Shown here: piece after piece, positions 5,345 through 44,315 of the stretch
How positions within the stretch are numbered: the first letter of the stretch is position 1
Layout: every line of letters begins with the position of its first letter
Assembly: GCA_964407105.1 (NCBI GenBank)
Contig: CAYOUG010000004.1
Coordinates: 6,936 to 70,935, forward strand
Origin: an uncultured Candidatus Saccharibacteria bacterium
GTDB taxonomy: Bacteria; Patescibacteriota; Minisyncoccia; Phycocordibacterales; CALRHW01
DNA length: 64,000 nucleotides
Direction of reading: 5' to 3'
The notes under the pieces: generated by a model
Told to the model about the DNA's origin: nothing
Databases searched by the model: none
The model's input: the letters and a program-made list of their open reading frames with translations, nothing else
Position numbers and translations under genes: made by a program

Positions 5345-7777
5345 CTATTTTTTCTTTTCTTCAATCGGTAAATCAGCTCGTTTTTCTGGTTTATCGTCTA
5401 CAGGTGGTTCAGCGTTTACAAATGGCGCACGACCCGCATTTAAGTTTTCAAGAATAAGCATAACCTCTGGATTGCCTGGATTTAATGCTAAAATTTCTTC
5501 CATTTGCTTAACGGCGAGCTGTCGTTTGTTTATTTTTTCATAACTCAAACCAAGAAAATACTTTGCATTTGAATATTCTGGCAAAAGCGAAATTGCACGT
5601 TCAAAAGATTTCACTGCACCAACATAATCTTTGTAATTGTATTTGAGTAATCCTAGCTCAAAAAACACACCGACATCATTTGGAGAAATGACAGAAATGT
5701 TTTCAACAGAAGCAATCGCCGACTTTATATCTCCCTGACTCACTTCTATTTTAGATTTTAAGAAAATAGCTTCACTGTAATTTGATTTTTTAGATAACGC
5801 TTGAGCAATATATTCTTTTGCTTTTACAAAATCCTGTTTTGTTGCCTCAAGACGAGCCAAAATAAAGTAAATTTGTGGGTTTGCCGAACTTCTTTTTGAC
5901 GCCTCTTCATATGCATTTTTTGCGTTCTCATAAGCCTGATCCAAACCAAGGGGCATCACCGATTCATAAACCCTACCAAGTGCCACCCAATTTTCATAAT
6001 TTGTATTATTAAATTCAATTGCTTTTTGGGCGCTTACTATTGCATTTCCAAGTATTCTTTGAAATTCTTGCTGCACCGCTTCTGTTACTTCACCGGTAGT
6101 AACAGAAGAAACAATAACACCGAGACGATTGATTTGTAACGCGGAATACTCTCGATAAAACGCATCATTTGCACCATACGTAATGGCTTGTCCAATATTT
6201 TTTTCAGCAAAATCAAGATTACCTCCTGCACGCAAAGTGGATGCACCGCGTTCAAAAAAGTAAGCAGATACCATTTTTTGACTAAAACCATACAAAAACG
6301 CAAGACTCACTATACAGATCAATACAAAAGCAAGAACAAAAACGAAACTTGCCTTTGGGAAAGAGGCGAAAGCAAAAGTTTTAGATTTCAAAACCCCCTG
6401 CATGTGTGCGGTAGCAAAAAACAATCCTGTCATAAAAAACGTAAGCACAATAATTGCTGTGCTCGGAACATAAAATATACACATAATCCAGAAATAAAGG
6501 GAAACAAAAAACGATGTGGTTGAAGCATAACGCACAATACTTCTCTGTTCACGAGTAAAAAGTGATATAAAACCAACATAAACAAAAAGCGCCAAAAAGA
6601 CCAACCACGATAATATACCAAATATTCCTGTGGTCACTAAAAATGTAGGAACAAAACCAATGCCAGAAATAAAATCTAGGTTCCAAAACTGTGTTGTGTT
6701 TATGTCAATTGGTTTAAATTGTTGCCATGCTGTAGAAAAATTGTTTGGGCCTATTCCAAATGCTGGGTTTTCTTTTAGTACATTTTTGGAAATGTTAAAC
6801 GTCGCTGTCCATGATGGGCGCACCTGAATATTAGACGCGCCAAGCATTGAGGAAATTGAATTGCTAAACACACTACCTAAAGGCAATAAAAACATAATGG
6901 AAATAACAAGAACCACTAGTGATCGAATAGATACTTTTCTTGTATTATTTCTTCCTTTTGCAATATGAACAACCTCACCATTTGGACTCGTCTCAATTTT
7001 TTTCTCATAATTCGAAACGCCTTCAATTGAAAAGAAATAAACAAAAAACACCAGAGAAAGACACGCTAACACAATCCAAAGAAGTGAAAAATTGGTGATA
7101 ACCAAAAAACAAATTGCCAACACAAAAATCCCATACATAAACATCTTTAAAACTTTTGAAATCGGCAAAAGTTCTATGGTCATAAGTGAAATAATGAGTG
7201 TAGAACCATACAAAATAGCAAGATCATACCATCCACCCACAGGAGTAGCATCTTGAGTAGTAAACATTCCAAAAGAAAGAAAATTTGGACCAAAAAGAAA
7301 ACGAACGAGATGAAAAAGTGAAACTATTATCACAGAAAATAAAATTGCACCAAAAGCATAAACTAATCTTTTTTCAGATCTAAATAAAAGAGAAACTAAA
7401 AAAGTACAAATTGAAACAATAAACAAAAAACTAAATGTACCAACCTCAAAACCATATCCCATGAATGATCGCGCTGAAGAACTACTAAAAATAGAAGCGA
7501 TCAAAGCAATAAGGGGTATAGAAGCAAGCGCTATGTAAATATAGCTAGTTGGCAACTCAAACTGTCCCCTTTTTAATAAATAAACTATGTAGAGACAAAA
7601 AGAAATAATTACAGTAAAAAATACAAGTGCGACCTTACTAAATTGAAAAGTTATAAAAGCCGATGGAATAAAAAAGAATGAAACACAAGTAAGTAAAATA
7701 AATACGCCCAAAAGTGGTAGTTTTTCCAATGTAAATATCGCTCGAATACCTCTTTTATTAACAGTGTTTTCTTCCAT
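5345..7777 (-). CDS. Polytopic membrane protein with O-antigen-ligase/Wzy_C-like core fused to C-terminal TPR repeats
   Basis: 810 aa. About 12 TM helices with a large periplasmic loop in the Wzy_C position, then about 300 aa of TPR-like repeats (AYENAKNAYEEA..., YFLGLSYEKINKRQLAVKQMEEILALNP). Paralogous to 31645-33843. Confidence 0.6.
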   Translation of the reverse strand: MEENTVNKRGIRAIFTLEKLPLLGVFILLTCVSFFFIPSAFITFQFSKVALVFFTVIISFCLYIVYLLKRGQFELPTSYIYIALASIPLIALIASIFSSSSARSFMGYGFEVGTFSFLFIVSICTFLVSLLFRSEKRLVYAFGAILFSVIIVSLFHLVRFLFGPNFLSFGMFTTQDATPVGGWYDLAILYGSTLIISLMTIELLPISKVLKMFMYGIFVLAICFLVITNFSLLWIVLACLSLVFFVYFFSIEGVSNYEKKIETSPNGEVVHIAKGRNNTRKVSIRSLVVLVISIMFLLPLGSVFSNSISSMLGASNIQVRPSWTATFNISKNVLKENPAFGIGPNNFSTAWQQFKPIDINTTQFWNLDFISGIGFVPTFLVTTGIFGILSWLVFLALFVYVGFISLFTREQRSIVRYASTTSFFVSLYFWIMCIFYVPSTAIIVLTFFMTGLFFATAHMQGVLKSKTFAFASFPKASFVFVLAFVLICIVSLAFLYGFSQKMVSAYFFERGASTLRAGGNLDFAEKNIGQAITYGANDAFYREYSALQINRLGVIVSSVTTGEVTEAVQQEFQRILGNAIVSAQKAIEFNNTNYENWVALGRVYESVMPLGLDQAYENAKNAYEEASKRSSANPQIYFILARLEATKQDFVKAKEYIAQALSKKSNYSEAIFLKSKIEVSQGDIKSAIASVENISVISPNDVGVFFELGLLKYNYKDYVGAVKSFERAISLLPEYSNAKYFLGLSYEKINKRQLAVKQMEEILALNPGNPEVMLILENLNAGRAPFVNAEPPVDDKPEKRADLPIEEKKK

Positions 7778-7865
7778 GGTAAATGTTCGTTATTCTTTTA
7801 TTATTAATCGATAATACTTGCCATTATATAAGATTTTTTGACCCCACTCAACGAACAACTTTTAC

Positions 7866-7895
7866 ACACAAAAACCCGCTTTAGGCGGGTTTTTG
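7866..7895 (-). terminator. Bidirectional intrinsic terminator downstream of rnpB
   Basis: aaaacccgc-tttag-gcgggtttttg; GC stem flanked by A-run and T-run, directly 3' of the rnpB end. Confidence 0.6.
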
Positions 7896-7903
7896 TAATT
7901 TTT

Positions 7904-8248
7904 TTGTCTTGTGTCTATAAGCCGAATTCTGTATCTTTTCAGACGATGATTATTTATCTGTTCTGCTTGTTACCAAGCGAATCAAGCGGCACTCTCTGCT
8001 TTCGCAGAGCACGGCCTTGCATACACGTAAGGATTTAGCCGTTGCAATTTATGTGTTACCACACAAACTTATCCGATTACTCGGATACCGTATTCTTTCG
8101 AAATCCGGCGTCTCTGTTCGCACCTCGCAAGTTACCTTGGACGGGTGTTACCCGCTACGCTCTCCCGCGCGTCCGAAGGCGCGCGGGCTGTATGTTCGGA
8201 CTTTCCTCTATATGCTTTCGCATACAGCAATCATCCAACACAAGACCA
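7904..8248 (-). ncRNA. rnpB: RNase P RNA (bacterial type A)
   Basis: The minus-strand sequence contains the universally conserved P4 region GAGGAAAGTCCGAAC, followed by ...GCCCGCGCGCCTTCGGACGCGCGGGAG...GCGGGTAACACCCGT (cf. E. coli GGGUAACGCCUGGG). The 3' P4 strand ACAGAATTCGGCTTATAG matches E. coli ACAGAACCCGGCUUAUCG. A P1 helix pairs GTCTTGTGT (5' end) with ACACAAGAC (3' end). The region is a GC-rich island in AT-rich DNA. Confidence 0.87.
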
Positions 8249-8283
8249 CAATACTATATCACATTTTAAATTTTATTTCAACC

Positions 8284-11200
8284 TTAGATTTCTGGCTCAA
8301 CCGGAGAAGAATTTTCTGGGGCTGATTCACCCTCAGGTTGTACTTGATCAACAGAAGAAGAATCGTTTGGTGGATTTACATCAGCATCAGCACTAGCATC
8401 TCCAGAAATTTCATCTCCGCCAGTTTGGGCTTGTGTCTGTGGGGGTTGCACTTCGCTAGTAGGCACCTCAACATTATTATTTTGACCACACTCACCAGCG
8501 ACAGAAAGCATTTTTCCATTAGACATCTTCAAACAATAAGGTTCGCCTGTAACCTCATCATAAAGTGTAATTCCTGTTGGCTTTTCACTACTTCCCACTG
8601 TAAATGTTTCTACTATCACATTTTTAAATTGAGCAACATCTTGTGCAATATTTACACCAAAATTTTTCAAATAATTCATTATCGCAACAATCAAAGATTC
8701 TGAATTTACAATTCCAGTAGAGGTTGCAGAGCTTGTTGCGGTAGTAGATGCAACACCAAGCTGATTTTCCAAAGCGGTGACTCGCATTTCTAGATTATCA
8801 AACTTATGTTGAAGTGCTTTTACGCCACCAAGCGTAAACACCGCGAGCTTATATGCATCTATATCTTTACCACCAACAGAAAGAATTTCACTTGGTGCTT
8901 CATCAGCAACAATTCCAAGTCGAAGTGGCGCCGACTCATCTTCATTTTTGTATCGATAAGTTGAAATTGTTGTACCTTTTATTTTATCAAGATACGTATC
9001 TAGATCAGTCTCAGTAAGTGATGTCACTGAATCAAGTTTGTTGCGATCACCAAATACTGAAAATCCGTAGCCAGCAACATCACCTGACACCGTAAGCTTG
9101 AACGAAGGACTTGTAGTACCAATACCTACGTTACCAAACGTGTCTTGTACCAACATATTTCCATAGTAGTAGGTTGGCTCAACTTTCATCATCACTGTTT
9201 TTGTGTAAAGTTTTGAATTTTCATCATATGATTGAATAGCTCGACCAATTACAGGACCAGAGGCTGTTGCTTTCATGGCCACACCAGAAATAGATGAGGA
9301 AGTGAGATAATCTCCTGGTTTAATATCTCCATTTTCAAGAGAGATAAGTACTGGCACACGTCCGGACATTGCTACGTTCACAGTATGTTCATTTGTTTCT
9401 CCAAGATTTTGTACACTTGTCATACCCACCACACCAAAAACATTTGCGTCATAAATTTTATTACTCAAACGCACACGTGAGGTGTCTTTTTCGTGGAAAG
9501 CAACCACCGAGCCCTCAACAAATTGAGTTGGATCTCCCACTAAATATGGCGCGGTAATAGCAGCCGCAGAAACAGAATTATAATTTTTAATATCATCTTC
9601 ACTAAGTGACGCCACACCACCCACTTCTTCAGATTGAGCAATCATTGGTGTAGAAAGAGATCCTGGTGGATCATCCATCCAAAAACGAATAAGAGAAACA
9701 AGTAGACTTGGATTTGCGTTGGCTGTAACACTAGCACCAGCAAAATTTGCAACGAGTGTTATTGGCTGAAGTGTCGCCGAAGGAATGGTTGTATTGTGTA
9801 CCGCCACCACAGCACCATTTATCAAATATGTTGCTGAGGTAGTAGAAAGTTCAATACGCATTTTTAGAAAATTTGTGGTCGAAGTCGCTACGTTTGTATT
9901 AGTAAATGTTTCTCCACTTCTATTTTTAGTAACCATTATCCAATTTGGCCCAGAGGTTGCTGTAAAAAATGCGCCCTGTGTTGGTACGGTTCCTGTATCA
10001 GCACCAAAAGCGGCGTCTGTAAGACCTACAACATAAAGAGGTGTGGTAGTAGCTGTCGCAGTACGTGTAGCTTGTACCCATGCTTCAAATATTGGACTTG
10101 ATGTTGCAGAACTAGTAAAAACCGCTGTGCGAAGTGCGCTTCCGTCTCCAACGGTTGGATTTGTTGCGCCGGCTTGCAATTGAATAGCGGGAGGGTATGT
10201 GTTCCTTGTTAAAATCGCGGTGCCGTCTGTATCTAAGTCGAAAGCAAAATCTCCACAGGCACCAGCAGCATCAGAAGACCAAGCACCTCCTCCAGAACCA
10301 CCCACATCGCAAGAAAGATATCGCCACGTTGTATATACACGACCAGCTACAGTAAGCTGATCTCGAAGTCCACCAGCACCCCACGTGGTTGTTGTACCGA
10401 TAGCTACACGAGCATAATCTAGAAGACCTGTGGTTGTGGAAGTTACATAAAAGAGTGGTTGCTGTCCTCCGTTATTCCAATCACTTGTGGTCGCCACTAT
10501 AAAAGACGGGAGAATACTGTCCGTTCCACCACCCACCACAGAAAGTTTTGCATATGCTGATGTGGTGCCGATTCCAAAATTTCCAACAGAACTTAATGTT
10601 GCTTTTGTTGCATTATTTACTCTAAATCCCATCGATTTTCCTGATGGTGTATTAAATATTGTTCCTTCACCAGCATCCCACAAAAATGAATAACTATTCG
10701 TGTCTGGTGCAACCGTGTTTGCTCCAAACCATATTCCGGGATATGTGGTGTCTCCCACGATATTTCCCAACAAAACCCCCCTTCCAGCTCCAGCGTTAGA
10801 AAATCCAGCAACCAAATTACCAGCAACGTCTAATTTTTGTACTGGTGAGCTAGTACCAATTCCTACATTTCCAATATTATTTACCAAAAAATATGTTGAT
10901 GTGGCGTTTGAAACAGATGATGATGCGATTGCAAATAAAGGAATTTGAGATGAAGCGTTTACGCTTGTTATGGAAAGTTTTGCATATGGTGTAGTTGTAC
11001 CGATTCCAACAAGTCCAGTAGAAGTGATGCGCATACGTTCATTTGATGAAAGTGTGCCAGCTGTATGGAAAATAATATTTGCATTGCCTGTGGTAGACGC
11101 AGTACCAATGGCAAGATTGCTATCTGAACTATAAAGATAGGCATCATTTGCGCCGGTGATAGAAAACGCTGCTTGATTGTATGTAGAACTATTGATACCA

Positions 11201-14200
11201 AGATCTACATAATATTTTGTATCTGAACCCAAATCATTTGTTGCTATCCAGTCAGAAGAAGCTGCACTTCCTGAACTTGAATTTTGAATATTTGCTTGAA
11301 GATATCCATCTGTAGATGAGCCAATATTTAACATTGCGCCAGGAAACAATGATCCTGATCCGATAATTGTCTGTGAAAGATACGAAGTACTCGACGCATA
11401 TATTCCTGCCTTTGCCCACAGTGCTGTGGTGGTAGCTGAGGTATTTACTCCGTAGTTTGTAAGTGGTGTGAATGGGAAAGCACCTCCTGATGCAGTAATA
11501 GCTCCACAGGTTACTACCCCTGATGAATCGGTAGTAAGTGCACTTGATCCACTACAACCAGAGATACCTGAAATATTGAGTGCTGTGGTGGAAGCTGTGC
11601 CTGAGACGGTGATTGCGGTGGTTGAAGCGTATGGGAAGGTGGAGGCAGAGCTTGAGGTAGAGGTAATAGCACCACCAACAAAAAGAGTACTTGAGATGTA
11701 ACCCGCACCGTGTACTGAAAAAAGTTTCCCAGGTGTACTTGTAGCGACTCCCACATTTCCAAAAGCCGAAACACTATTATGACCAAGAACTACATTTCCA
11801 TTAGCGTTTCCTTGACCCGCATAAATAAAGACACTACCACCAGAAGCCTGAGCTTCTGTATCACTACCAGCCCCAATAAACACATCTCCTCCTTGAGTAG
11901 TTACAGTGTCCGCACCCAAAATAGAAAGTCGCCCACCTCCAGCAGTATCAAAACCGATTGTTCTGTTTGTGGCGGCCGATGTAAAATACAAATCACCATT
12001 TACTTCAAGTCTTGCGTTTGGACTCAATGTACCAACCCCAATAAATCCACTTGAATTCCATATTCCAGAACCTGGGAAGTAGGCTGTACCAGAAACAGAA
12101 AGTGCGGTAGTGGTTGCATTTGTTGTGGTTGAGTTATCAAAGATTGCGTTTGCAAAATATGAGGTTGATGATGCAAATATCCCAGACTGTGCCCACAGTG
12201 CTGTGGTGGTAGCTGAGGTATTTACTCCGTAGTTTGTAAGTGGTGTGAATGGGAAAGCTCCTCCTCCACCCACAATAGCTCCACAGGCTACTACTCCTGA
12301 TGCGTTGGTAGTAAGTGCGTTTGATCCACTACAACCCGAGATACCTGAAATATTGAGTGCTGTGGTAGAAGCTGTACCTGTGACAGTGATTGCGGTAGTT
12401 GAAGCGTATGGGAAGGTGGAGGCAGAGCTTGAAGTAGAGGTGATGGTGCCGCCGACAAAGAGAGTACTTGAGATGTAACCCGCGCCCTGAACAGCAAATT
12501 TTGTGCTTGGGGTTGCAGTAGCCACTCCAACATTTCCAAAAATATCAACGATAAATTGTGTCGAGGTTGCAATACCTGTTGAAGAAGAGGCTACTACAAA
12601 TTGTGGTATGAGACTGTTGTGAGAACTAACGGAAAGTTTTGCCCATGGAGTACTTGTACCAACACCAACTCTTCCTCCAGTATCAGCAATAATTACATTT
12701 CCATCGTAAGCAGGAACCCCTCCACTTGAAGCACCACCACGTATGTATATGTTCCCGCCACTTGTTGATCCGCCCACATCTTCATTTCCAGCAGCACCCG
12801 CCGCCAACAAAAGATGACTTCCTGCAACATCAGATGCACTTTGTCCAATAAATATTCTTCTTGTAGCAATTGAAGCTATACCTGGAAAAGAGATATCGCC
12901 AGCAACCAAAAGCTGAGGTAAACCGCTTGGATTTAGATCAGAATTTGATGTAGTAAATCTTTGGTAAGAACCAATTTGTACATACTGATTGTATACAGCG
13001 AGAACATCTCTATCTGATGATGTTGCTACAGTGAGTAGTTTCAAGCCGGGTTCATTATTTCCAAATCCAGTTATTGTTGAACCTACGATAGCAAGTTTCG
13101 CCTTTGCCGAGGTGGTACCTATATAAAGACCTGTTGCAAATGTACTTGTGGCAGAAAAATTCGCAGCCACAAATTGTGAAGTACTCGACGCAAATATTCC
13201 AGACTGTGCCCACAGTGCTGTGGTGGTAGCTGAGGTATTTACTCCGTAGTTTGTAAGTGGTGTGAATGGGAAAGCTCCTCCTCCACCCACAATAGCTCCA
13301 CAGGCTACTACTCCTGATGCGTTGGTAGTAAGTGCACTTGATCCACTACATCCTGAGATACCTGAAATATTGAGTGCAGTGGTGGAAGCTGTGCCTGAGA
13401 CGGTGATTGCTGTGGTTGAAGCGTATGGAAATACTGAAGCTGTTGATGTAGTAGCGGTGAAGTATGCGGATACGGTCTCTCCCACCACAGAAAGTTTTGC
13501 GTATGGTGAGGTGGTGCCGACTCCGACATTGCCGCCATTCAAAACTATTTTTCCATTAGCACCAGCAGAAGCGTTTGCGCCAGATGTGCCCGCAGTAATA
13601 TAAACACTACCTCCCGCACCACCAGTATCTGGACCGCCACTACCAGCTCCGCCATTACCTGCAGTAAGAGTTAAATCTCCACCAACACCCGCTGGACCAC
13701 CTGATCCACCAGCACCACCAGTACCTGTGGTTATGGTTATAGCACCACCCGCTCCACCAGCACCACCTGCTCCAGTTCCAGTTCCACCAGTTCCAGCAAA
13801 AAGAAGCATTTTGCCACCGACACCAGCCGTTGCTCCAGATCCACCCGTTCCACCAAGAACTGAAAACACTGTTGATGCACTAATACCAGAAGATTGATCG
13901 TTTCCTTTTACTGAAAACTTAGCAAATGGCGAACTTGTTCCCACTCCTACATTTCCAATAACATCAACAATAAAATCTGTTGTTGTTGCAAATACACCAG
14001 CAGTAGAAGAAGCAATTACAAATTGTGGTTGTGTTCCTCCGTTTGAACTAACAGAAAGTTTTGCCCATGGAGTAGTTGATGATACACCGATATTTCCAGT
14101 AGAGGTTACTCTTAAATATTCATTGCCTCCAGTAGAAAATCCAACAACATCAGCACTAGGAGAAAATACTCCAGTATTAGTATCACCACTAAATGAAAGA

Positions 14201-15777
14201 CCTGGGGTAGCGGCATTACCAGCACCAGCAATACCTAGAGTTTGAGTAGTATTAATTCTAGCTGTACCAGCAATCCAAAATTGTGTTGAAGCATTAACTA
14301 CACCGTCAGCTCGCCAATAATCGTTGGTGTTATTAAACATGAAATAATCTGTCGCTCCAGAAATTGCAGACGCCGCAAGATTTATACCATATACCGCCGC
14401 AGCACCAAGATTTGAAATATTAAGTCCTGCAAGACCAAGTCCTCCTCCGTCTATAGTAAGTCGTGAACTAGAACCGCTTGAAGCTCCGGGTGTTGATGTA
14501 CCAATACCAATAGATCCATTAAACGAAGATGTCGCGGTAGATGTACCGACAAAAGTTTCTCCTACCACCTGTCCCGCCACAGAAAGTTTTGCATAAGGTG
14601 AGGTGGTGCCGATTCCCACACTTCCAGTAGATGTCCATATTCCAGAACCTGGGAAATAAGCAGTACCAGAAACAGAAAGTGCGGTAGTGGTTGCATTTGT
14701 TGTGGTTGAGTTATCAAAGATTGCGTTTGCAAAATATGAGGTTGATGATGCAAATATCCCAGACTGTGCCCACAGTGCTGTGGTGGTAGCTGAGGTATTT
14801 ACTCCGTAGTTTGTAAGTGGTGTGAATGGGAAAGCTCCTCCTCCACCCACAATAGCTCCACAGGCTACTACTCCTGATGCGTTGGTAGTAAGTGCGTTTG
14901 ATCCACTACAACCCGAGATACCTGAAATATTGAGTGCTGTGGTAGAAGCTGTACCTGTGACAGTGATTGCGGTAGTTGAAGCGTATGGGAAGGTGGAGGC
15001 AGTAGATGTGGTAGCGGTGAAGTATGCGGATACTGTTTGACCAACAACAGAAAGTTTTGCATAAGGTGAGGTGGTGCCGATTCCTACATTTCCTCCACTT
15101 TTTAATGTAAGTACCGATGCAGAACTTGGACCAATAAAGTTTGCAATGTCACCCGCTCCGTTTTGTGTAATCGTCAAAAATGTTGATGCAGTATTTGTAG
15201 CGTTTGTTGCATCAGCGCGCAAAAATTGCTCGCTTGAAAGACCATCTAAGGTATCTGCAACAAACGCTGCCGGCACAGCACCAAGTTTTTTTCGAGGTGT
15301 CATTTCCCCATCCCAAACCGCACCACCACCAGATCCTCCCACCTCAACCCCGAGGTAAAGCGTTTGATTGAAATCTACACTCGTCAGCGGTGTAGAGCTT
15401 CCAAGCATAACACTGAAAAGACCGTTGGTAAGGGTGATACGATCACCTGCCGCAGTACTCCTGTCTTCATCCCAAATACTCGCTCCACCTGTTGCAACAG
15501 TGTAGAGCTTAAATCTCATGTGATACGTGCCATCAGCGACAGCAACATTGCTTGAATTAGTAAGCTTTCCCTGATAATTAATTTCTTTATTAAATGCAGC
15601 GTTTGCACTTTTTGTTTGGCCTAGAAACAAAAGTTGCGGCGATAAAAGAGATACGAGTACAACAAACACAACAGCTGTTGTATATACGCGTAGAAAACGA
15701 CGTGTGCATGCAAAAGCCGTCGTGCGCATTGTGACCGCATTTCTTATATCTATGATGTTTTTAATAAGCGTACGCAT
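8284..15777 (-). CDS. Giant secreted fibre/adhesin-like protein (2497 aa). Repetitive Gly/Thr/Ser-rich tail-fibre-like beta-helical repeats, Gly-rich block, C-terminal Peptidase_S74 intramolecular chaperone domain plus acidic C-terminal extension
   Basis: N-terminal signal/TM (VVFVVLVSLLSPQLLFLGQ). At least 10 copies of G(I/V)GT(T/S)SP(Y/W/F)AKLSV(V/S)G-type repeats. Four copies of a roughly 130-aa module (SAYFTATTSTAS...CSGS...ACGAIVGGGGAFPFTPLTNYGVNTSATTTALWAQSGIFASSTS). Near the C-terminus ...FGDRNKLDSVTSLTETDLDTYLDKIKGTTISTYRYKNEDESAPLRLGIVADEAPSEIL...YKLAVFTLGGVKALQHKFDNLEMRVTALENQL matches the endosialidase-chaperone (S74) domain consensus (SDRRLKenI...l..v.Y.yk......r.GfIAqEv..v.Pe.v........y.l...i.A.kel....eeLe). 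Confidence 0.85.
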   Translation of the reverse strand: MRTLIKNIIDIRNAVTMRTTAFACTRRFLRVYTTAVVFVVLVSLLSPQLLFLGQTKSANAAFNKEINYQGKLTNSSNVAVADGTYHMRFKLYTVATGGASIWDEDRSTAAGDRITLTNGLFSVMLGSSTPLTSVDFNQTLYLGVEVGGSGGGAVWDGEMTPRKKLGAVPAAFVADTLDGLSSEQFLRADATNATNTASTFLTITQNGAGDIANFIGPSSASVLTLKSGGNVGIGTTSPYAKLSVVGQTVSAYFTATTSTASTFPYASTTAITVTGTASTTALNISGISGCSGSNALTTNASGVVACGAIVGGGGAFPFTPLTNYGVNTSATTTALWAQSGIFASSTSYFANAIFDNSTTTNATTTALSVSGTAYFPGSGIWTSTGSVGIGTTSPYAKLSVAGQVVGETFVGTSTATSSFNGSIGIGTSTPGASSGSSSRLTIDGGGLGLAGLNISNLGAAAVYGINLAASAISGATDYFMFNNTNDYWRADGVVNASTQFWIAGTARINTTQTLGIAGAGNAATPGLSFSGDTNTGVFSPSADVVGFSTGGNEYLRVTSTGNIGVSSTTPWAKLSVSSNGGTQPQFVIASSTAGVFATTTDFIVDVIGNVGVGTSSPFAKFSVKGNDQSSGISASTVFSVLGGTGGSGATAGVGGKMLLFAGTGGTGTGAGGAGGAGGAITITTGTGGAGGSGGPAGVGGDLTLTAGNGGAGSGGPDTGGAGGSVYITAGTSGANASAGANGKIVLNGGNVGVGTTSPYAKLSVVGETVSAYFTATTSTASVFPYASTTAITVSGTASTTALNISGISGCSGSSALTTNASGVVACGAIVGGGGAFPFTPLTNYGVNTSATTTALWAQSGIFASSTSQFVAANFSATSTFATGLYIGTTSAKAKLAIVGSTITGFGNNEPGLKLLTVATSSDRDVLAVYNQYVQIGSYQRFTTSNSDLNPSGLPQLLVAGDISFPGIASIATRRIFIGQSASDVAGSHLLLAAGAAGNEDVGGSTSGGNIYIRGGASSGGVPAYDGNVIIADTGGRVGVGTSTPWAKLSVSSHNSLIPQFVVASSSTGIATSTQFIVDIFGNVGVATATPSTKFAVQGAGYISSTLFVGGTITSTSSSASTFPYASTTAITVTGTASTTALNISGISGCSGSNALTTNASGVVACGAIVGGGGAFPFTPLTNYGVNTSATTTALWAQSGIFASSTSYFANAIFDNSTTTNATTTALSVSGTAYFPGSGIWNSSGFIGVGTLSPNARLEVNGDLYFTSAATNRTIGFDTAGGGRLSILGADTVTTQGGDVFIGAGSDTEAQASGGSVFIYAGQGNANGNVVLGHNSVSAFGNVGVATSTPGKLFSVHGAGYISSTLFVGGAITSTSSSASTFPYASTTAITVSGTASTTALNISGISGCSGSSALTTDSSGVVTCGAITASGGAFPFTPLTNYGVNTSATTTALWAKAGIYASSTSYLSQTIIGSGSLFPGAMLNIGSSTDGYLQANIQNSSSGSAASSDWIATNDLGSDTKYYVDLGINSSTYNQAAFSITGANDAYLYSSDSNLAIGTASTTGNANIIFHTAGTLSSNERMRITSTGLVGIGTTTPYAKLSITSVNASSQIPLFAIASSSVSNATSTYFLVNNIGNVGIGTSSPVQKLDVAGNLVAGFSNAGAGRGVLLGNIVGDTTYPGIWFGANTVAPDTNSYSFLWDAGEGTIFNTPSGKSMGFRVNNATKATLSSVGNFGIGTTSAYAKLSVVGGGTDSILPSFIVATTSDWNNGGQQPLFYVTSTTTGLLDYARVAIGTTTTWGAGGLRDQLTVAGRVYTTWRYLSCDVGGSGGGAWSSDAAGACGDFAFDLDTDGTAILTRNTYPPAIQLQAGATNPTVGDGSALRTAVFTSSATSSPIFEAWVQATRTATATTTPLYVVGLTDAAFGADTGTVPTQGAFFTATSGPNWIMVTKNRSGETFTNTNVATSTTNFLKMRIELSTTSATYLINGAVVAVHNTTIPSATLQPITLVANFAGASVTANANPSLLVSLIRFWMDDPPGSLSTPMIAQSEEVGGVASLSEDDIKNYNSVSAAAITAPYLVGDPTQFVEGSVVAFHEKDTSRVRLSNKIYDANVFGVVGMTSVQNLGETNEHTVNVAMSGRVPVLISLENGDIKPGDYLTSSSISGVAMKATASGPVIGRAIQSYDENSKLYTKTVMMKVEPTYYYGNMLVQDTFGNVGIGTTSPSFKLTVSGDVAGYGFSVFGDRNKLDSVTSLTETDLDTYLDKIKGTTISTYRYKNEDESAPLRLGIVADEAPSEILSVGGKDIDAYKLAVFTLGGVKALQHKFDNLEMRVTALENQLGVASTTATSSATSTGIVNSESLIVAIMNYLKNFGVNIAQDVAQFKNVIVETFTVGSSEKPTGITLYDEVTGEPYCLKMSNGKMLSVAGECGQNNNVEVPTSEVQPPQTQAQTGGDEISGDASADADVNPPNDSSSVDQVQPEGESAPENSSPVEPEI
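11377..11706. repeat. Intragenic DNA repeat copy 1 (most divergent) inside the giant fibre gene
   Basis: Shares tgcccacagtgctgtggtggtagctgaggtatttactccgtagtttgtaagtggtgtgaatgggaaagc... through ...gagtacttgagatgtaacccgc with the copy at 12058-12486. The antisense ORF 11468-11701 translates nearly identically to the ORFs at 12245, 13262 and 14822. Confidence 0.75.
12058..12486. repeat. Intragenic DNA repeat copy 2 (about 430 bp), near-identical to copy 4
   Basis: 12058-12426 is essentially identical to 14635-15003 (about 369 bp), and then continues like copy 1. Confidence 0.8.
13166..13436. repeat. Intragenic DNA repeat copy 3
   Basis: agactgtgcccacagtgctgtggtggtagctgaggtatttactccgtagtttgtaagtggtgtgaatgggaaagctcctcctccacccacaatagctccacaggctactactcctgatgcgttggtagtaagtgc... 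is shared with copies 2 and 4. Confidence 0.8.
14635..15003. repeat. Intragenic DNA repeat copy 4, near-identical to copy 2
   Basis: See copy 2. The identity runs from ccatattccagaacctggg... through ...gcgtatgggaaggtggaggcag. Confidence 0.8.
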
Positions 15778-15780
15778 TAA

Positions 15781-17349
15781 TTATTTTTTGAGAAGCGCTC
15801 GGACAAATTTATATCCGAGAAAAAGCAACACAAAGATAAGTATTAGAACAAGAAGAACAGGAATATTTTCTGAAACAAGAACAAACAAACCGTGAAGTGA
15901 TAAATCTGTATTTGATGCAACATTTGGCATCAAAGACACGATCACACCTGCAAGTTTTTTTAATCCTTGATTTTTGTAATCAAGAATCGTTACACCAAAC
16001 TCAAACTTTCCTGAACGACCAAGCGGTGCAATGAGTGCCTCATAAGCTGTTTTCTCTTTATTTACTCGAAGCAAAAACGAAAATGTTTTAGAGTGATCTT
16101 CTGGGTCTCGCATTGTTACCGTAATCGTCTTTAGAATTTCTGGAACTTTTTTGTAATCAAGAGAAATTGTAAGTTCTCGATCTCCTTCTATTTCAACTGA
16201 GTGAGAAGTAACAGAAAGTTTTTTACCATTTTGAAAGAAATCTAAATCAAGCACCGTGAGTCCCGCAATCATTGGATGAACTTTTGATTGAGGTAACTCT
16301 TGTATTTCTCCAAAAAGATCTTCTGAATCATGTGGCTCGCCTATTTTATAGAGTCGGCCTTTTGTAACCGCTCCAGATGAATAGTTACCAAACTCATCGC
16401 GAGCAAAAACTGTGTAGTAATAAACTTTTCCATACTCCACATCTGTGTCTACTAGAAATTCAGCATTTCCTTCATAAACCACTTTTCCATCAAACAAATC
16501 TTTTGGATAAAATTTGTCAGATCGCACTACACGTACAGATTCAAAATCCACAAGAGGATTTTTCCAAGAGAGTGTGATTTTTTTATCATCACCCACCGCT
16601 TTTAAATTTGTAACGTTACTCGGCGGATTTGTATCAGGTAATGATGTAGTTACAAATTGTTGATTGTCTATCACAAGTTTTCGTCCATATGCATCAATAA
16701 GCTCGATTCTGAAATAATATGTCGTACCCGGTGTAAGACTTTCTATACTAATAGAGTGATTTGTGAGAAAGAGCTGTTCGGCAAGAGTACCGATCTCATA
16801 ATCTGGAGTTTCTCCCCACGACACAATCGCTTGTGTGTAGATGTTTGTCTCAAAATTTATGACAGAACTTGTAACGTCTGGTTGCACCGACATGCCAAGC
16901 AATTTAAGCAACAAAGTTCCCGATATGTTTCCATCACTGGTTGTTGGTGGTGGAACTGAGGCTTCAAGTGTTGTCGCAGTAGCGGTTGCTGATGTTGGTG
17001 AATAGTTGAACGATGAATCAAATGCGGTCACTGTATAGTCGTATGTTGTTTCCGGAGAAAGACCAGTATTTGAATATGTCGTTGCGGTAGATGTTGCAAT
17101 AAACACTAGATCACGAAAGACTTGATATCCTGCAACACCATAATTATCTGTTGATGCAGTCCATGAAAGATTTATCTGCGAACTCGATACTGCAGTAGCT
17201 GTAAGATTTGTGGGAGTAGATGGGGCGACACCGTCAACGACCGTTATTGATTGCTCTACTTGAAACGTATCTTCTGCCGCTTGTATAGATAGCACCGCAC
17301 CACAAAGTGTGACGGTGAAAACCATAAAAATGTATAGAAGTTTTTTCAT
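15781..17349 (-). CDS. Cell-surface protein with fibronectin type III domains, N-terminal signal peptide and C-terminal TM anchor
   Basis: 522 aa. Signal peptide (MKKLLYIFMVFTVTLCGAVLSIQA). FN3 hallmark motifs (NLTATAVSSSQINLSWTASTDNYGVAGYQVFRD; KKITLSWKNPLVDFESVRVVRSDKFYP...YYYTVFARDEFGN). C-terminal hydrophobic anchor IPVLLVLILIFVLLFLGYKFVRALLKK. The stop lies 3 nt from the giant gene start. Confidence 0.7.
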   Translation of the reverse strand: MKKLLYIFMVFTVTLCGAVLSIQAAEDTFQVEQSITVVDGVAPSTPTNLTATAVSSSQINLSWTASTDNYGVAGYQVFRDLVFIATSTATTYSNTGLSPETTYDYTVTAFDSSFNYSPTSATATATTLEASVPPPTTSDGNISGTLLLKLLGMSVQPDVTSSVINFETNIYTQAIVSWGETPDYEIGTLAEQLFLTNHSISIESLTPGTTYYFRIELIDAYGRKLVIDNQQFVTTSLPDTNPPSNVTNLKAVGDDKKITLSWKNPLVDFESVRVVRSDKFYPKDLFDGKVVYEGNAEFLVDTDVEYGKVYYYTVFARDEFGNYSSGAVTKGRLYKIGEPHDSEDLFGEIQELPQSKVHPMIAGLTVLDLDFFQNGKKLSVTSHSVEIEGDRELTISLDYKKVPEILKTITVTMRDPEDHSKTFSFLLRVNKEKTAYEALIAPLGRSGKFEFGVTILDYKNQGLKKLAGVIVSLMPNVASNTDLSLHGLFVLVSENIPVLLVLILIFVLLFLGYKFVRALLKK

Positions 17350-17355
17350 TACGTT

Positions 17356-18120
17356 TTAAAGGGGTAGTGCAGTAACTGTTGTTGTGGCTAGATATACTCC
17401 TTCTGGTTGAAGATGTGCAGTGCCAGATTGAGCACGAAATTTTAGTGTTGTAGCGGTACCTGATGGATGATTTGGAGAAGTACTTCTACTTATTACTTCA
17501 TTCGCAGTTGAGAGATTGTACCAACACGCATCTGCTGTATCGGTTGTGTCAACATTGCATGTGTTAGATCCATTGTCTTTAAACTTTTGAACAATGTGTG
17601 AACCTTCAGGTGTAAAAGCAAATTCTGATGCAGAAGCAGCGATTGAAAAGGTGAAATCTGGATTTGCACCAGCTGGTGTATAATCCGCAAAACTATTTGC
17701 ACCACTCACAAGCGCTGGTGAAGAACTTGCTTTGATACTAAGTTCATAACCAGAAGGACTGTCGGTAATAACCGTCACAACCGCGGATCCATTTGAAGTA
17801 CCGCCGGTCACACCACCAATATTTGGACTCATAACCACATCAGAAACAGAAGTAATTGCGATATACACTTCTTGCATCTGTTGATACCCTGCTTTTATTT
17901 TGTAGAGTGTGCCTGAAGATTCGCCAGTAGCTACTTCTCCAGCAGTACTTTCTTGCGTATAACTTGTAGAAGTAGAAAGTCCTCCTCCAAAATTAACGCT
18001 GTCGCTTTGAATTTTGTATAACGTACCGGTCATTTGAGCAAAAGAAACATTGCCAAATGTTGATACCACATACAAAGAAACTGAAACAAATAAAGCTGTA
18101 TACAGATAAGCCTTAAACAT
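17356..18120 (-). CDS. Secreted Ser/Thr-rich protein, paralog A of 19104-19808
   Basis: 254 aa with signal peptide. Shares with 19104-19808 the motifs VTGGTS.G, GY...IKASSSPA, KFKDNGSNTCN, two conserved Cys (..NTCN... ..CW..LST) and a T/A-rich C-terminus (TATATLTAVT / ATTTVTALPL). Confidence 0.55.
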   Translation of the reverse strand: MFKAYLYTALFVSVSLYVVSTFGNVSFAQMTGTLYKIQSDSVNFGGGLSTSTSYTQESTAGEVATGESSGTLYKIKAGYQQMQEVYIAITSVSDVVMSPNIGGVTGGTSNGSAVVTVITDSPSGYELSIKASSSPALVSGANSFADYTPAGANPDFTFSIAASASEFAFTPEGSHIVQKFKDNGSNTCNVDTTDTADACWYNLSTANEVISRSTSPNHPSGTATTLKFRAQSGTAHLQPEGVYLATTTVTALPL

Positions 18121-18122
18121 GA

Positions 18123-19094
18123 TTATGATTTCTTTCGAATTTCAAACCGAGTAACAATAAATCGAATTACAAAGAGCAAGATTATAATGATCACACACGC
18201 AAGAACGAGAAGTTTTATTGGAATTACCCAAAAAGTAAATTCCATTGTGTCTACAATGTTGTCATAACCCCTATTTATAGAAGCTACGGCCGTGTATTTT
18301 CCGAGAAGAAAACCACTATTCCATTGCACCTCTCGAAGTCTCAGCGAGTCAGGCATCGCAAACCAAGGAGCCACTTCTACATTTCCAATTTCCTTTCCAA
18401 GAATATTTTTTATACTGATTTCTCCATAAGGATTTTCGTGCACACTTCCTTTGTTTTCATAAAGAAGTTCAAACTGCACTGGACCAGCACCATAAATTTT
18501 CTTTGTATTTTTTGTTTGGAATTGTGTAAGTTTTCCTTCTTGTTTTACCTCACCCGGTACTCGAATAAAAAACAATGTTCCTATGCGAGTAACTATTGCA
18601 CTTGATGGACCTTTGGCGCCCGTTGGTTTTGAAGCGGTACTTACAAGAACACTTCCATACAAACCACCCGGCTGTGCATCTGCTGGAACAAACACAGTCA
18701 CAGGAATAATTGCTCTCTGTGCGTGCATGAGTTCAAAACTTTTTTCTGGAAAAGAAATATAATCTTTTAGAGAATATGGACCGTGATCTTCACCAAGAAG
18801 AACAACTGTATCTGAGGTATTTTTAGAACCACTAAAATCTTCGGTATCAAGATAAAAGATACGAGTATCTCCCATTCTGTTACTTACTGAAATATTTACT
18901 GTTTTACTTTCTCCGGGTTTTATTTCAAGTTCCTGTTTTCCAGGACCAACCACGAAGTCACTTCGCACAATATCGTCAGGAAGCGCTTCTATCGTGTAAG
19001 AAAAAACTTTAGAAAAAGGAAAAAGAGACACTAAACAAAAAAACATAATGACACCAACCTTCCAGGATATGTAATTTTTTTCTGTAGACGTCAT
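18123..19094 (-). CDS. Surface protein with N-terminal signal peptide, beta-rich ectodomain and C-terminal TM anchor
   Basis: 323 aa. Hydrophobic N-terminal segment, ectodomain beginning YTIEALPDDIVRSDFVVGPGKQELEIKPGESKTVNISVSN, C-terminal TM LLVLACVIIIILLFVIRFIV followed by basic residues. Flanked by the two paralogous secreted proteins. Confidence 0.5.
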   Translation of the reverse strand: MTSTEKNYISWKVGVIMFFCLVSLFPFSKVFSYTIEALPDDIVRSDFVVGPGKQELEIKPGESKTVNISVSNRMGDTRIFYLDTEDFSGSKNTSDTVVLLGEDHGPYSLKDYISFPEKSFELMHAQRAIIPVTVFVPADAQPGGLYGSVLVSTASKPTGAKGPSSAIVTRIGTLFFIRVPGEVKQEGKLTQFQTKNTKKIYGAGPVQFELLYENKGSVHENPYGEISIKNILGKEIGNVEVAPWFAMPDSLRLREVQWNSGFLLGKYTAVASINRGYDNIVDTMEFTFWVIPIKLLVLACVIIIILLFVIRFIVTRFEIRKKS

Positions 19095-19103
19095 ACGGTT
19101 AAT

Positions 19104-19808
19104 TTAGTTTGTAACTGCTGTGAGGGTGGCTGTAGCTGTGTATGTGTCTTGAGCAAGACCTGAATTTGAACCAACAGAAACTCTAAAATAAACACTTGAT
19201 GTCGAACCAGATGCTGTTGTTTCGCTAGAAGATACTATGGTTGATGTTGCCGAAGTAGAAAGACCCATCCAACATGATCCAGATCCACCAGTATCGGCCG
19301 ATCCCGTATTGCATGTATTTGAACCATTATCTTTAAACTTTGTTGCAAGTTCTGCTGTAGTACTTGCAGAAACACTAAAACCAAATTTATGTGTACCCGC
19401 ACCCGCTGCTGAATAAGCATAATCAGGAACACCAGTAACCGCAGGAGAATAATCTGATATTGATCCACCTTGAGAATCTGCTTGCATTGCGGGCGAACTA
19501 CTTGCTTTTATTGTCATGGTATAACCAGCAGCATTGTTGGTTGTAACAATTGCTGTTGTTGTACCGTATGACGTACCTCCAGTAACACCGGCAATAGAAC
19601 CGTTCATTGTGACGTTGTTTGCTCCGGTTAAGAAAGCAATTTCTGAGGTGATTGATTGAGTAACTGTAAATTGATCTTCAACCGCTCGACTTAGTGTGGG
19701 TTCAATAACCACAAAAGCCAACGCAAGTGTAAGAGTCAAAAAGAAACTCGCTGCAATCGCCTGTCTTACATTTATTTTTTTAATCATAATTTTTAATTTA
19801 ACTTTCAA
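19104..19808 (-). CDS. Secreted Ser/Thr-rich protein, paralog B of 17356-18120
   Basis: 234 aa. Signal peptide (start possibly at an internal Met, MIKKINV...). Homology to 17356-18120 through the IKASSSPA / KFKDNGSNTCN / CW.GLST motifs. Confidence 0.55.
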   Translation of the reverse strand: MKVKLKIMIKKINVRQAIAASFFLTLTLALAFVVIEPTLSRAVEDQFTVTQSITSEIAFLTGANNVTMNGSIAGVTGGTSYGTTTAIVTTNNAAGYTMTIKASSSPAMQADSQGGSISDYSPAVTGVPDYAYSAAGAGTHKFGFSVSASTTAELATKFKDNGSNTCNTGSADTGGSGSCWMGLSTSATSTIVSSSETTASGSTSSVYFRVSVGSNSGLAQDTYTATATLTAVTN

Positions 19809-19836
19809 ACTTTAATAATATTTCGACCTTTACAGA

Positions 19837-19889
19837 CTTACGTCTGTTCTCGAGGCTCGCTTACTACAAGCGCCGAGAACAGACGTAAG
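19837..19889. other. GC-rich perfect 16-bp inverted repeat (stem-loop) between two minus-strand genes
   Basis: cttacgtctgttctcg (19837-19852) and cgagaacagacgtaag (19874-19889) around a 21-nt loop. Followed on the plus strand by tatttatttttt. Unusually GC-rich for this window. Confidence 0.5.
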
Positions 19890-19899
19890 TATTTATTTT

Positions 19900-20799
19900 T
19901 TAATCATCAACCGGTACAAGAACATATAAATATTCTTGATCATTTGTATTTTTAAATATTGGTTTTATCACACCAGAAGAACCTGTTTCGTCTGGTACGA
20001 CCTGTGTTTGATCAGAAAATGAATTCTTAATTCTCTGTTTTACTTTTTCATTTTTAAATTCATCTCCTGTACCTGGCACCACAATCATTCCCGTCTTTGA
20101 ATCTTGCGATACAGAATTTCGATGGTTTATATCATCACGCACAACCACTGTTTTATTTATATTCATACGCAACAAAGATGAAATAAATCTGTATGAATTT
20201 AAAGCGATTGAATCAAATTTGTTACGCAACGAATGCGTAAGATCACGAACACTAATCTGGATATTATTTACATTTGAAACACTTGCGGAATCTCGCACAA
20301 GTGCAAGTGTTTTAGATGTTTTAGAAACAAAAGAAGTTATAAATATTTTTTCTGAAGAAATAAAATGTTCTGAAACAACAGCAATATTTGTTTGATATTG
20401 TTTGTTGTTTGAACCATAAGCAAAAAAAGCTATTGCAGAAATTACAATAAACAAAAGGGCATAAAACATTCCTGAATGTGAAAGAAAAGAAAATACTTCA
20501 GAGGGAGCAAATTCTTTTTTGTTCGTTTTTAGGTTTTCTGACGCTTTAAAAACCGAAGCATTTTGTGACACAACACTGACTGGAGGAAATACGATTGTTC
20601 CACGAATTTTTTCAGATGCATCTTTTTGGTGTTCGATGATCGAATCTTCGCTCACAAACCAACCCCTTCCCACCTGTCGGCACTCAAGTTTGCCAGATCG
20701 ACAAAGTTGACCGATATAATCCGAATTATAGCCAGATATTTCTGAACCTCGTTTTGCCGAGATATATTTTTTTCCGTTGAAATAGAGCTCGCTATTCAT
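19900..20799 (-). CDS. Membrane-anchored protein with N-terminal excisionase/MerR-like HTH, single TM and extracytoplasmic C-terminal domain
   Basis: 299 aa. The N-terminal about 60 aa (KKYISAKRGSEISGYNSDYIGQLCRSGKLECRQVGRGWFVSEDSI) has the HTH_17/Xis-MerR pattern (helix...G.L...R.G...W.v.e..i). TM segment MFYALLFIVISAIAFFAYG. Ser/Asn-rich C-terminal domain. Confidence 0.45.
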   Translation of the reverse strand: MNSELYFNGKKYISAKRGSEISGYNSDYIGQLCRSGKLECRQVGRGWFVSEDSIIEHQKDASEKIRGTIVFPPVSVVSQNASVFKASENLKTNKKEFAPSEVFSFLSHSGMFYALLFIVISAIAFFAYGSNNKQYQTNIAVVSEHFISSEKIFITSFVSKTSKTLALVRDSASVSNVNNIQISVRDLTHSLRNKFDSIALNSYRFISSLLRMNINKTVVVRDDINHRNSVSQDSKTGMIVVPGTGDEFKNEKVKQRIKNSFSDQTQVVPDETGSSGVIKPIFKNTNDQEYLYVLVPVDD

Positions 20800-35826: not shown

Positions 35827-37479
35827 TTATTTATCAAAATTACCACCAGATTGAAATCTTTTAAATGCAACGGTTGTGTCTCCGGCATTTGTCACCCTTG
35901 CTTTATCATGAAAATCAACATAAACCTGTTTTATATATGTTACTTCATCGATACTACCAGCTTCACGACCAAAACCAGAATCTTTTATACCACCAAAAGG
36001 TTTTCCTTCTTCTGCTCCGGTGGTTCCACGTCCAATATAAAACACACCAGTTTTTACACGTTCCATACATCGCATTGCAAGAGGAATATTATGCGTGAGA
36101 ATTGCATTACTCAAACCGTAACGAGATTTATGTACCATATCAAGAGCATTCATTAATGCCTTCTCATTTGTTTCACCATCAAATGACATCACTGAAATAA
36201 TAGGACCAAACACCTCATCAGACATGGTCGGACTATTAAATTTTGTCTCAGTAAGAATGGTTGGGGTACAATAATTACCATTTTTATTTTCTATTTTACC
36301 GCCACACAAAATTTTAGCGCCGGTTTTTACACTTTTATCTATTGCAGATTTTATATTTTTTAAAGAAGATTTATTTATGACCGGACCCATATCGGTTTTT
36401 TCTTCTGATGGATCTCCTACTGTATATTTTTGAGACTGATCCACCAATCGAGAAATAAAATTTTTATATATATTTTTGTGAACAAAAATAGCACGGAGAG
36501 CAACACATCTCTGTCCAGAATCACCAAATCCAGCAATTATTGATTCAGATACTGCTCTTTCGATATCAAAATCATCCATTAAAATAATTGATGCGTGTCC
36601 ACCAAGTTCAAGACTAACCGGTTTTATGCGGGCACCAGCTTTTTGTGCTATTAATGCTCCTGTAGCTCTAGACCCTGTAAACAAAATTTTGTCATAATCC
36701 CCCTTCTCAACAAGTATATTTCCAACGGTAGCACCGATACCGTGCACAACCTGAATAATATTTATAACTTCTTTTGCATGACCACCCAACACTTCTTCTA
36801 GAACTTTATGAAATAAGAAACAGAAAAAAGAAAGTGCAAGGGGTGTTTGTTCAGAATCCTTCAAAATAATTGCATTGCCACCAGCAAGCGCTGCAAACAT
36901 TTTGCGTGCTGGTAAAACCAAACTAGAATTCCATGGTGTTATTCCCAATATCACACCATAAGGTTCACGCGTTGAAATAGAACTCTTGTCTTTCATTTGA
37001 GAGCGAGAAAAAGAACCTTGTATACGAGAAATTTCTCCATGAAAATGCCACAAACTATTTAACATTCCTTGCACTTCTGCATCAGCAAATTTCCAAAGTC
37101 TACCACCCTCCTCCACTTGAATTTTTACAAAAGTGCCCCGATGTTCTTCAACAAGTTGAGCTGTTTTTTGAAAAATTTTTTCTTTTTCTTTTTGACTAAC
37201 CTGAAAATGCCAATATTCCTGAGCCTTACGTGCATCTTCACATAAAATTTTTATCTGTCTTTCTGAAAGATCTTTAATAAAATATATAGATTTTTGGTTT
37301 GCTGGATTGATTATTTCAAATTCACTAGCGCCACCACCGTTTTGCCAAGACCCAGCAAAAAAACTTTGAACATATTTTTTGTTATTTTCTTTTTTAATTG
37401 AAAAAATCTTCTTTTCTGCTTCTTTAATAAGTGTCATAAAATTCATATTACCACGCAGTCCAACCGCCATCGACAACAA
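35827..37479 (-). CDS. Aldehyde dehydrogenase family protein
   Basis: 550 aa. SLELGGHASIILMDDFD (ELGG(K/N)) and GQRCVA (catalytic Cys) motifs. The real start may be an internal Met, since the 5' end overlaps the SDR gene by 32 nt. Confidence 0.8.
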   Translation of the reverse strand: MLSMAVGLRGNMNFMTLIKEAEKKIFSIKKENNKKYVQSFFAGSWQNGGGASEFEIINPANQKSIYFIKDLSERQIKILCEDARKAQEYWHFQVSQKEKEKIFQKTAQLVEEHRGTFVKIQVEEGGRLWKFADAEVQGMLNSLWHFHGEISRIQGSFSRSQMKDKSSISTREPYGVILGITPWNSSLVLPARKMFAALAGGNAIILKDSEQTPLALSFFCFLFHKVLEEVLGGHAKEVINIIQVVHGIGATVGNILVEKGDYDKILFTGSRATGALIAQKAGARIKPVSLELGGHASIILMDDFDIERAVSESIIAGFGDSGQRCVALRAIFVHKNIYKNFISRLVDQSQKYTVGDPSEEKTDMGPVINKSSLKNIKSAIDKSVKTGAKILCGGKIENKNGNYCTPTILTETKFNSPTMSDEVFGPIISVMSFDGETNEKALMNALDMVHKSRYGLSNAILTHNIPLAMRCMERVKTGVFYIGRGTTGAEEGKPFGGIKDSGFGREAGSIDEVTYIKQVYVDFHDKARVTNAGDTTVAFKRFQSGGNFDK

Positions 37480-38254: not shown

Positions 38255-38277
38255 TTTTAATTAATTTTTAATAAAAA

Positions 38278-39426: not shown

Positions 39427-39465
39427 AGTATATGCAAAAACGACTTTTTACGCAACACAAAACGA

Positions 39466-41276: not shown

Positions 41277-41288
41277 GTTTTAATACAA

Positions 41289-42143: not shown

Positions 42144-42145
42144 AA

Positions 42146-42880: not shown

Positions 42881-42889
42881 AAATTATTT

Positions 42890-44275: not shown

Positions 44276-44315
44276 AATCGTTGTAGAAACATTAAACTAG
44301 TATATTATACATAGT

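Follow-up and report, generated by a model that had tools for sequence, protein, structure and literature searches.

The minus strand of the window, the whole 64-kb stretch of DNA that was analyzed, carries a single match to the bacterial RNase P class A family (RF00010, RNaseP_bact_a) downstream of a giant open reading frame (ORF). Three Rfam matches reached the gathering threshold in a cmscan search of the entire window: two tRNAs and the RF00010 match, which extends from 7902 to 8246 (-) with a score of 108.5 bits (E 3e-32), only 8.5 bits higher than the RF00010 gathering score of 100 bits. The match spans model positions 1–367 of 367 and is therefore full length. RF00010 is also the best-scoring clan member after clan competition, which keeps the top match alone, and no second RNase P match is present within the 64 kb of genome searched. 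With G8246 as its first base and P1 closing at 7906, the RNase P RNA gene (rnpB) has a length of ~341 nt. An earlier note on this DNA had recognized rnpB on the minus strand and had suggested a search with RF00010; the significant, full-length match above the gathering score agrees with that assignment, and the P4 strands, P8 loop, P1 helix and downstream terminator that it quoted were all located in the sequence. The features of the locus are listed in Table 1.

Table 1. Features of the rnpB locus, in window coordinates.
Feature	Position	Strand	Basis
RNase P RNA (rnpB), P1 5' strand to P1 3' strand	7906-8246	-	RF00010 match (to 7902); covariation in 10 homologs
Candidate -35 hexamer TTGAAA, starting 3 nt past the giant ORF stop	8276-8281	-	promoter scan
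Candidate extended -10 box TGaTATAGT	8253-8261	-	promoter scan; equivalent box in relatives
P1, perfect 9-bp helix	GUCUUGUGU 8246-8238 with ACACAAGAC 7914-7906	-	fold
P4 5' strand, catalytic core, GAGGAAAGTCCG = GAGGAAAGUCCG	8208-8197	-	RF00010 alignment; invariant in 10 homologs
P4 3' strand, ACAGAATTCGGCTTAT = ACAGAAUUCGGCUUAU	7932-7917	-	RF00010 alignment
Lineage-specific hairpin CCCGCGCGcCUUCGGaCGCGCGGG, stacked on P5, at the type B P5.1 position	8164-8187	-	insertion relative to RF00010; covariation
P8 hairpin, CGGGTAACACCCG = CGGGUAACACCCG	8142-8154	-	RF00010 alignment and fold
P13 hairpin, type A specificity-domain element	8071-8086	-	RF00010 alignment and fold
P14 hairpin, GGUAA loop, type A specificity-domain element	8048-8067	-	8/8 pairs covary (helix 12)
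P15 and single short P16-like hairpin with GAAA loop	7988-8016	-	alignment, fold, covariation (helices 13, 14)
P18 hairpin, GGUAAC loop	7961-7981	-	alignment, fold, covariation (helix 15)
Predicted intrinsic terminator, hairpin AAAAACCCGC-CUAAA-GCGGGUUUUU then GUGUGU	7864-7894	-	fold, -18 kcal/mol
Giant ORF, 2497 aa, secreted, G/T/S/A-rich, repeat-containing, fibre-like; upstream neighbour of rnpB, not part of it	8284-15777	-	ORF, composition, repeats
Four overlapping ORFs, 66-102 aa, judged spurious	7838-8396	+	mechanical ORFs; Pfam-negative; not called on identical contig
ORF, 66 aa	7838-8038	+	mechanical ORF
ORF, 102 aa	8017-8325	+	mechanical ORF
ORF, 75 aa	8042-8269	+	mechanical ORF
ORF, 83 aa	8145-8396	+	mechanical ORF

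Genomic context and the giant gene

The same-strand neighbours of rnpB encode LepA, MurJ, a TPR membrane protein, DivIC/FtsB and glutaredoxin, and further genes encode GatB, Obg, SecA, MurB, transketolase and a surface-glycan/nonulosonic-acid cluster. LepA is 85–87% identical to its counterparts in metagenome-assembled genomes (MAGs) labelled Parcubacteria/Patescibacteria, and 60–76% identical to those of Zambryskibacteria, Taylorbacteria, Nomurabacteria and 'Paceibacteria' MAGs. Judged from this gene content, the DNA belongs to the chromosome of a bacterium from the Parcubacteria/Paceibacteria group. A phage origin, as implied by the term 'fibre gene', was rejected because the neighbours are cellular housekeeping genes and the LepA relatives are all from CPR MAGs. 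The surface-glycan/nonulosonic-acid synthesis genes (37448–47319) comprise NeuB, a cytidylyltransferase, methyltransferases, a polysaccharide deacetylase, glycosyl- and glycerophosphotransferases and a PMT_2 protein, and two large Wzy_C/TPR or TPR membrane proteins are encoded at 31645–33843 and 5345–7777.

The giant gene has a G+C content of 41–46%, against about 33–35% in its surroundings. At the N-terminus, its product carries a hydrophobic segment that ends in ANA; G/T/S/A make up 50% of the residues, and a GNVGIGTTSPYAKLSV motif is repeated. Four module copies of at least 300–400 nt with 84–95% identity are found within the gene (11252–11665, 12029–12442, 13046–13459 and 14606–15019). No match was obtained at default thresholds in Pfam, NCBIfam or a PDB sequence search. 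The protein matches three PHROG 'tail fiber protein' families (E 7e-11 to 6e-13), and its C-terminus gives a sub-threshold match to Peptidase_S74 (endosialidase chaperone; 20.6 bits versus 22). Homologs of this C-terminal region are encoded near rnpB in five relatives (L004, L007, L009, L012 and L022). The designation 'fibre gene' used in the earlier note is thus apt for the phage-tail-fibre-like segments, but the gene is a cellular one, encoding a predicted signal peptide and residing in a bacterial chromosome; its product is most aptly viewed as a putative giant fibre-like protein, secreted and located at the bacterial surface. Five ORFs upstream of the giant gene and on the same strand (15781–20799, -) encode a 522-aa fn3 protein, a protein with a weak WxL-interacting-protein-like match and three proteins without a family; together with the giant gene as the last member, they may constitute a surface-structure operon.

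Secondary structure and conservation of the RNA

In the window RNA, helices P1–P5, P7–P9, a short P12, P13, P14, P15, P18 and a 4-bp P19 are formed. P13 and P14 both fold as hairpins and P10.1 is missing, the arrangement of the type A specificity domain. Neither P10.1 nor P15.1 was found in the window fold or in the homolog alignment, and with P13 and P14 present the RNA does not display the type B combination of P5.1, P10.1 and P15.1 without P13/P14.

Homologs of rnpB were identified in about 32 of 81 LepA loci with nhmmer, using the window RNA as query, and are usually located 4–5 kb upstream of lepA. The RF00010 gathering score is passed by six of the seven relatives scanned, with 105–131 bits. 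The closest relative with a complete rnpB (L004, 3794–4171) scores below it owing to insertions that extend P3, P13 and P14, a direct illustration of how a CPR rnpB can escape standard annotation. In about a quarter of the relatives (L022, L009, L052, L026, L012, L045, L037 and L039), rnpB lies in the same neighbourhood on the opposite strand.

From a plain MAFFT alignment of ten homologs, supplied with no prior structure, RNAalifold recovered P1, P2, P3, P5, P8, P9, P10/11, P14, P15, P16, P18 and P19. The consensus fold contains 86 predicted pairs, of which 58 show compensatory change. The paired cells amount to 94.8%, compared with 38–46% when the partners are slid by 1–3 columns, and the 58 pairs changing on both sides compare with 20–25 in the slid controls; none of 500 column shuffles reached the observed pairing values. 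Seven of the eight P2 pairs are formed, and helices 1 and 2 covary across the ten homologs. Both conserved P4 strands (GAGGAAAGUCCG and ACAGAAnnCGGCUUA), expected of a type A RNA, were found and are invariant in the same set. Such heavy compensatory covariation across relatives, together with invariant P4 strands, points to selection on the RNA structure, and by this comparative evidence the gene encodes a functional RNA and is no decayed copy.

The presence of plus-strand ORFs of 66–102 aa across the region, and an Rfam score near the threshold, might be taken to mean that at least one of these ORFs is protein-coding or that the RNase P match stems from a degenerate pseudogene. The four ORFs, however, have no Pfam family match, overlap each other in different frames and do not appear among the genes predicted independently on the identical Logan contig (L001), where the rnpB stretch is left empty; a pseudogene is hard to reconcile with the covariation among relatives and the invariant P4 strands. 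We therefore regard protein-coding or pseudogene status as extremely improbable, and the earlier judgement that the four overlapping antisense ORFs are spurious stands.

The hairpin between P5 and P7 occupies J5/7, which is single-stranded in type A where P6 forms. It is aligned by Rfam as an insertion relative to RF00010, and the RNA departs in this respect from type A, in which P5.1 is absent. When the sequences were folded individually, the P5–P7 segment formed a hairpin of unrelated sequence in all 20 homologs tested (segments of 17–78 nt with flanks trimmed), with shuffle z-scores mostly from -2 to -10. All five basal pairs of this hairpin (helix 6 in the ten-sequence alignment), which is stacked on P5, change on both sides. 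Between the window RNA and L004, seven pairs of the P5.1 stem seem to change on both sides, but these were discounted, since a shift of the register by 1 nt within an alternating run of CG suffices to explain them; the covariation for the P5.1-position helix is therefore drawn from the broader homolog set. A MAFFT alignment restricted to the P4-to-P8 segment left the insert unalignable, as the sequences are too different, and the per-sequence folds and the full-length alignment were used. Homologs of the hairpin with variable length and covarying sequence occur in L004, L049, L081, L057, L005, L009 and others.

The P15–P17 arm has a constant form in the homologs, GCAAGGC-CGUR-(one short tetraloop hairpin)-RAG-UGCCGCU. 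Each of the 16 homologs examined has only one short hairpin after P15, in place of the P16, P17 and P6 expected of type A. With no P17 loop and the J5/7 strand replaced by a hairpin, the P6 pseudoknot, which is formed by J5/7–L17 pairing, is absent. The 3' side of the P15/16 internal loop reads GAGU in the window RNA and RAG-U in most homologs, compared to GGU in type A. The canonical GGU of RNase P RNA pairs with the tRNA 3'-CCA. The two tRNAs of the window differ in this element: tRNA-Phe(GAA) (245–320, -) has an encoded 3' CCA, and tRNA-Arg(CCU) (771–843, -) does not (the next bases are CAT). This difference is relevant to the altered CCA-binding loop, which has AGU for GGU.

Transcription of rnpB and its relation to the giant gene

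The giant ORF ends with TAA at 8286–8284, and the gap to G8246 (8247–8283) is 37 nt. The earlier note, in which the 5' end of the RNA was put at about 8248, 35 nt past the stop of the fibre gene, was correct as to the close spacing, but not as to the RNA start or the length of the gap, which would be promoter rather than RNA. The candidate sigma-70 promoter in this gap combines the -35 hexamer with a 17-nt spacer, TATAGT (8258–8253) and TG at 8261–8260, giving 10 of 12 consensus matches plus the extended -10. The -10 box ends 7 nt upstream of G8246, the first P1 base. By itself, the promoter scan lacks significance (3 sites versus 2.9 expected in 1.1 kb), and the case for an rnpB promoter is therefore based on position and conservation.

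An equivalent extended -10 box was found upstream of rnpB in 17 of 26 homologs, compared to 1.35% of random positions (at least 5/6 matches plus TG were demanded within a 26-nt upstream window, and the background was 9600 random positions in the same loci). In the 70-nt upstream regions of homologs, a TGTGGTATAAT-type box lies a few nucleotides before the RNA. The box is present whether a ribonucleotide reductase (RNR), small ORFs, a giant ORF or no same-strand gene lies upstream of rnpB, and also where rnpB is inverted relative to lepA (L022, L009, L039, L026 and L012). The upstream gene is a class II RNR in seven loci (L081, L016, L054, L038, L065, L057 and L043), a giant ORF in the window and L004 only, and a small ORF in other homologs. 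Four of these RNR genes (B12-type, ATP-cone) have their stop codon 17–25 nt before rnpB (L081, 5376–5392; L016, L054 and L038), such that the -35 region overlaps the last RNR codons there; a tblastn search detected no class II RNR gene in the 64-kb window. Overall, the spacing between the upstream ORF and rnpB is 17–50 nt in this lineage. By this comparison tight packing is the norm, with the 37-nt gap of the window a roomier case, and the earlier description of the arrangement as unusual did not hold up. With the extended -10 still adjoining it wherever the upstream sequence is readable, rnpB appears to behave as an invertible autonomous cassette.

A predicted terminator, consisting of a hairpin and a T-run, follows rnpB in all 23 homologs listed, inverted ones included, 10–25 nt past P1. 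In the window, a promoter-like site of the next gene is located at 7851–7823. The hexamers, spacing and terminator of an autonomous sigma-70 unit are thus all recognizable in the DNA. Transcription would start at or within about 2 nt of G8246, from a promoter filling the 37-nt gap, in which case no 5' processing would be needed, as for E. coli rnpB; it would end at the hairpin and T-run (7894–7864), leaving a ~40-nt 3' tail for trimming. E. coli rnpB is transcribed from its own sigma-70 promoter, begins directly at the mature 5' end and carries its terminator in a 3' tail that is trimmed. This gene organization is matched by the window rnpB, with its own putative promoter, a predicted start at the mature 5' end and a terminator.

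The earlier note had offered two options: either the rnpB promoter had to be embedded in the final codons of the giant gene, or rnpB was released by processing of the giant-gene transcript. On the minus strand, no terminator-like site was found in the interval from the giant ORF to rnpB (8284 to 8246), so polymerase arriving from the giant gene would enter rnpB and read-through transcripts are probable. It is nevertheless unlikely that rnpB lacks a functional promoter of its own and depends for its maturation on endonucleolytic cleavage of a roughly 7.9-kb giant-gene transcript, as a near-consensus extended -10 promoter lies at exactly the right distance, and its -10 box is kept in relatives whatever the upstream gene and even with rnpB inverted. 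Additionally, coupling an abundant, stable housekeeping RNA to a giant surface-gene transcript would presumably make its regulation difficult. A promoter located within the last codons of the giant gene is less likely still: the four RNR loci offer a precedent for a -35 region overlapping coding sequence, but in the window both hexamers and the spacer (8281–8253) lie downstream of the stop codon, and at most an UP-element would overlap the ORF. A complete predicted sigma-70 promoter between the stop codon and the start of the RNA, with a -10 box that is conserved in relatives, argues instead for independent expression of rnpB. Some co-transcription with the giant gene is likely, but would not be required. 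We infer the start site, the 3' end and the read-through alike from the features described above. Altogether, the segment 7906–8246 (-) very probably encodes the housekeeping RNase P RNA of a CPR bacterium (Parcubacteria/Paceibacteria) and is organized as a self-contained transcription unit with its own promoter and terminator.

Relation to known RNase P RNAs

The window RNA shares P1–P5, P7–P12, P13/P14, P15, P18 and both P4 strands with type A (RF00010; E. coli M1 RNA/rnpB). It would fold, by virtue of its family membership, as a type A-derived ribozyme that together with RnpA removes 5' leaders from pre-tRNAs. Compared with type A, it has the extra P5–P7 hairpin, P16/P17 cut to one short hairpin, no P6, a short P12 and AGU for GGU; the P5.1-position hairpin, the loss of P17 and P6, the short P12 and the changed CCA-binding loop would be features of the lineage. 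The missing P6, P16 and P17 do not exclude membership of type A, because such losses are documented within it (PMC8172020, PMC12974513).

With type B (Bacillus; P5.1, P10.1 and P15.1), the RNA has in common a helix at the P5.1 position and the absence of P6 and P17 (PMC12974513, PMC2858038). It differs from type B in that P10.1 and P15.1 are lacking, P13 and P14 are retained and the best clan score is that of type A. P5.1 is listed for type B only in published tables (PMC2858038). In the Bacilli–Mollicutes, P5.1 and P15.1 were gained as P6 was lost, and P6 is described as having been lost independently on multiple occasions elsewhere (PMC12974513). The L5.1–L15.1 contact of type B has no obvious counterpart here, since the hairpin loops of the homologs are variable tetraloops. 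Classified from its sequence, the window RNA is type A by score and specificity domain, and its catalytic domain shows a type B-like change.

RNase P RNAs of CPR bacteria are described in the RNase P section of Lui et al. (2021, PLoS Comput Biol, PMC8172020) as diverged and often below Rfam thresholds, often lacking P13, P14, P16 and P17, and with the UGG (GGU) motif lost in 23 of 35 CPR genomes. The window RNA shares with the RNAs described there the near-threshold RF00010 score, the reduction of P16/P17 and the altered GGU. In contrast to many of the examples in that section, it keeps P12, P13, P14 and P18. A P5.1-position helix is not mentioned in the text of the section, figures aside. The lineage-wide P5.1-position helix coupled to the loss of P6 is a mildly new element, and the only one.

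We infer that the P5.1-position helix braces the core in place of P6; docking of the P16 hairpin that is left, whose loop is mostly GNRA, onto this helix is a speculative possibility. It is tentatively proposed, with the balance of probability tilting slightly against it, that Paceibacteria/Parcubacteria RNase P RNAs represent a distinct structural subtype, having a type A specificity domain and an independent, Bacillus-like exchange of P6/P17 for P5.1 with no P15.1. In that case, bracing of the core by the P5.1-position helix would differ from that in type B.

For annotation, the locus should be labelled rnpB and the four ORFs dropped, as an instance of a CPR rnpB that lies near the Rfam threshold and is buried under spurious ORFs; near-threshold scores and diverged structure cause such genes to go unannotated. 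For compact genomes, a 37-nt gap that would hold a whole promoter means that co-transcription need not follow from close spacing downstream of a large gene. The P5.1-position helix leaves the understanding of RNase P unchanged and, together with the loss of P6, makes a small addition to the structural variation known for RNase P and to the convergent solutions by which its core may be braced.
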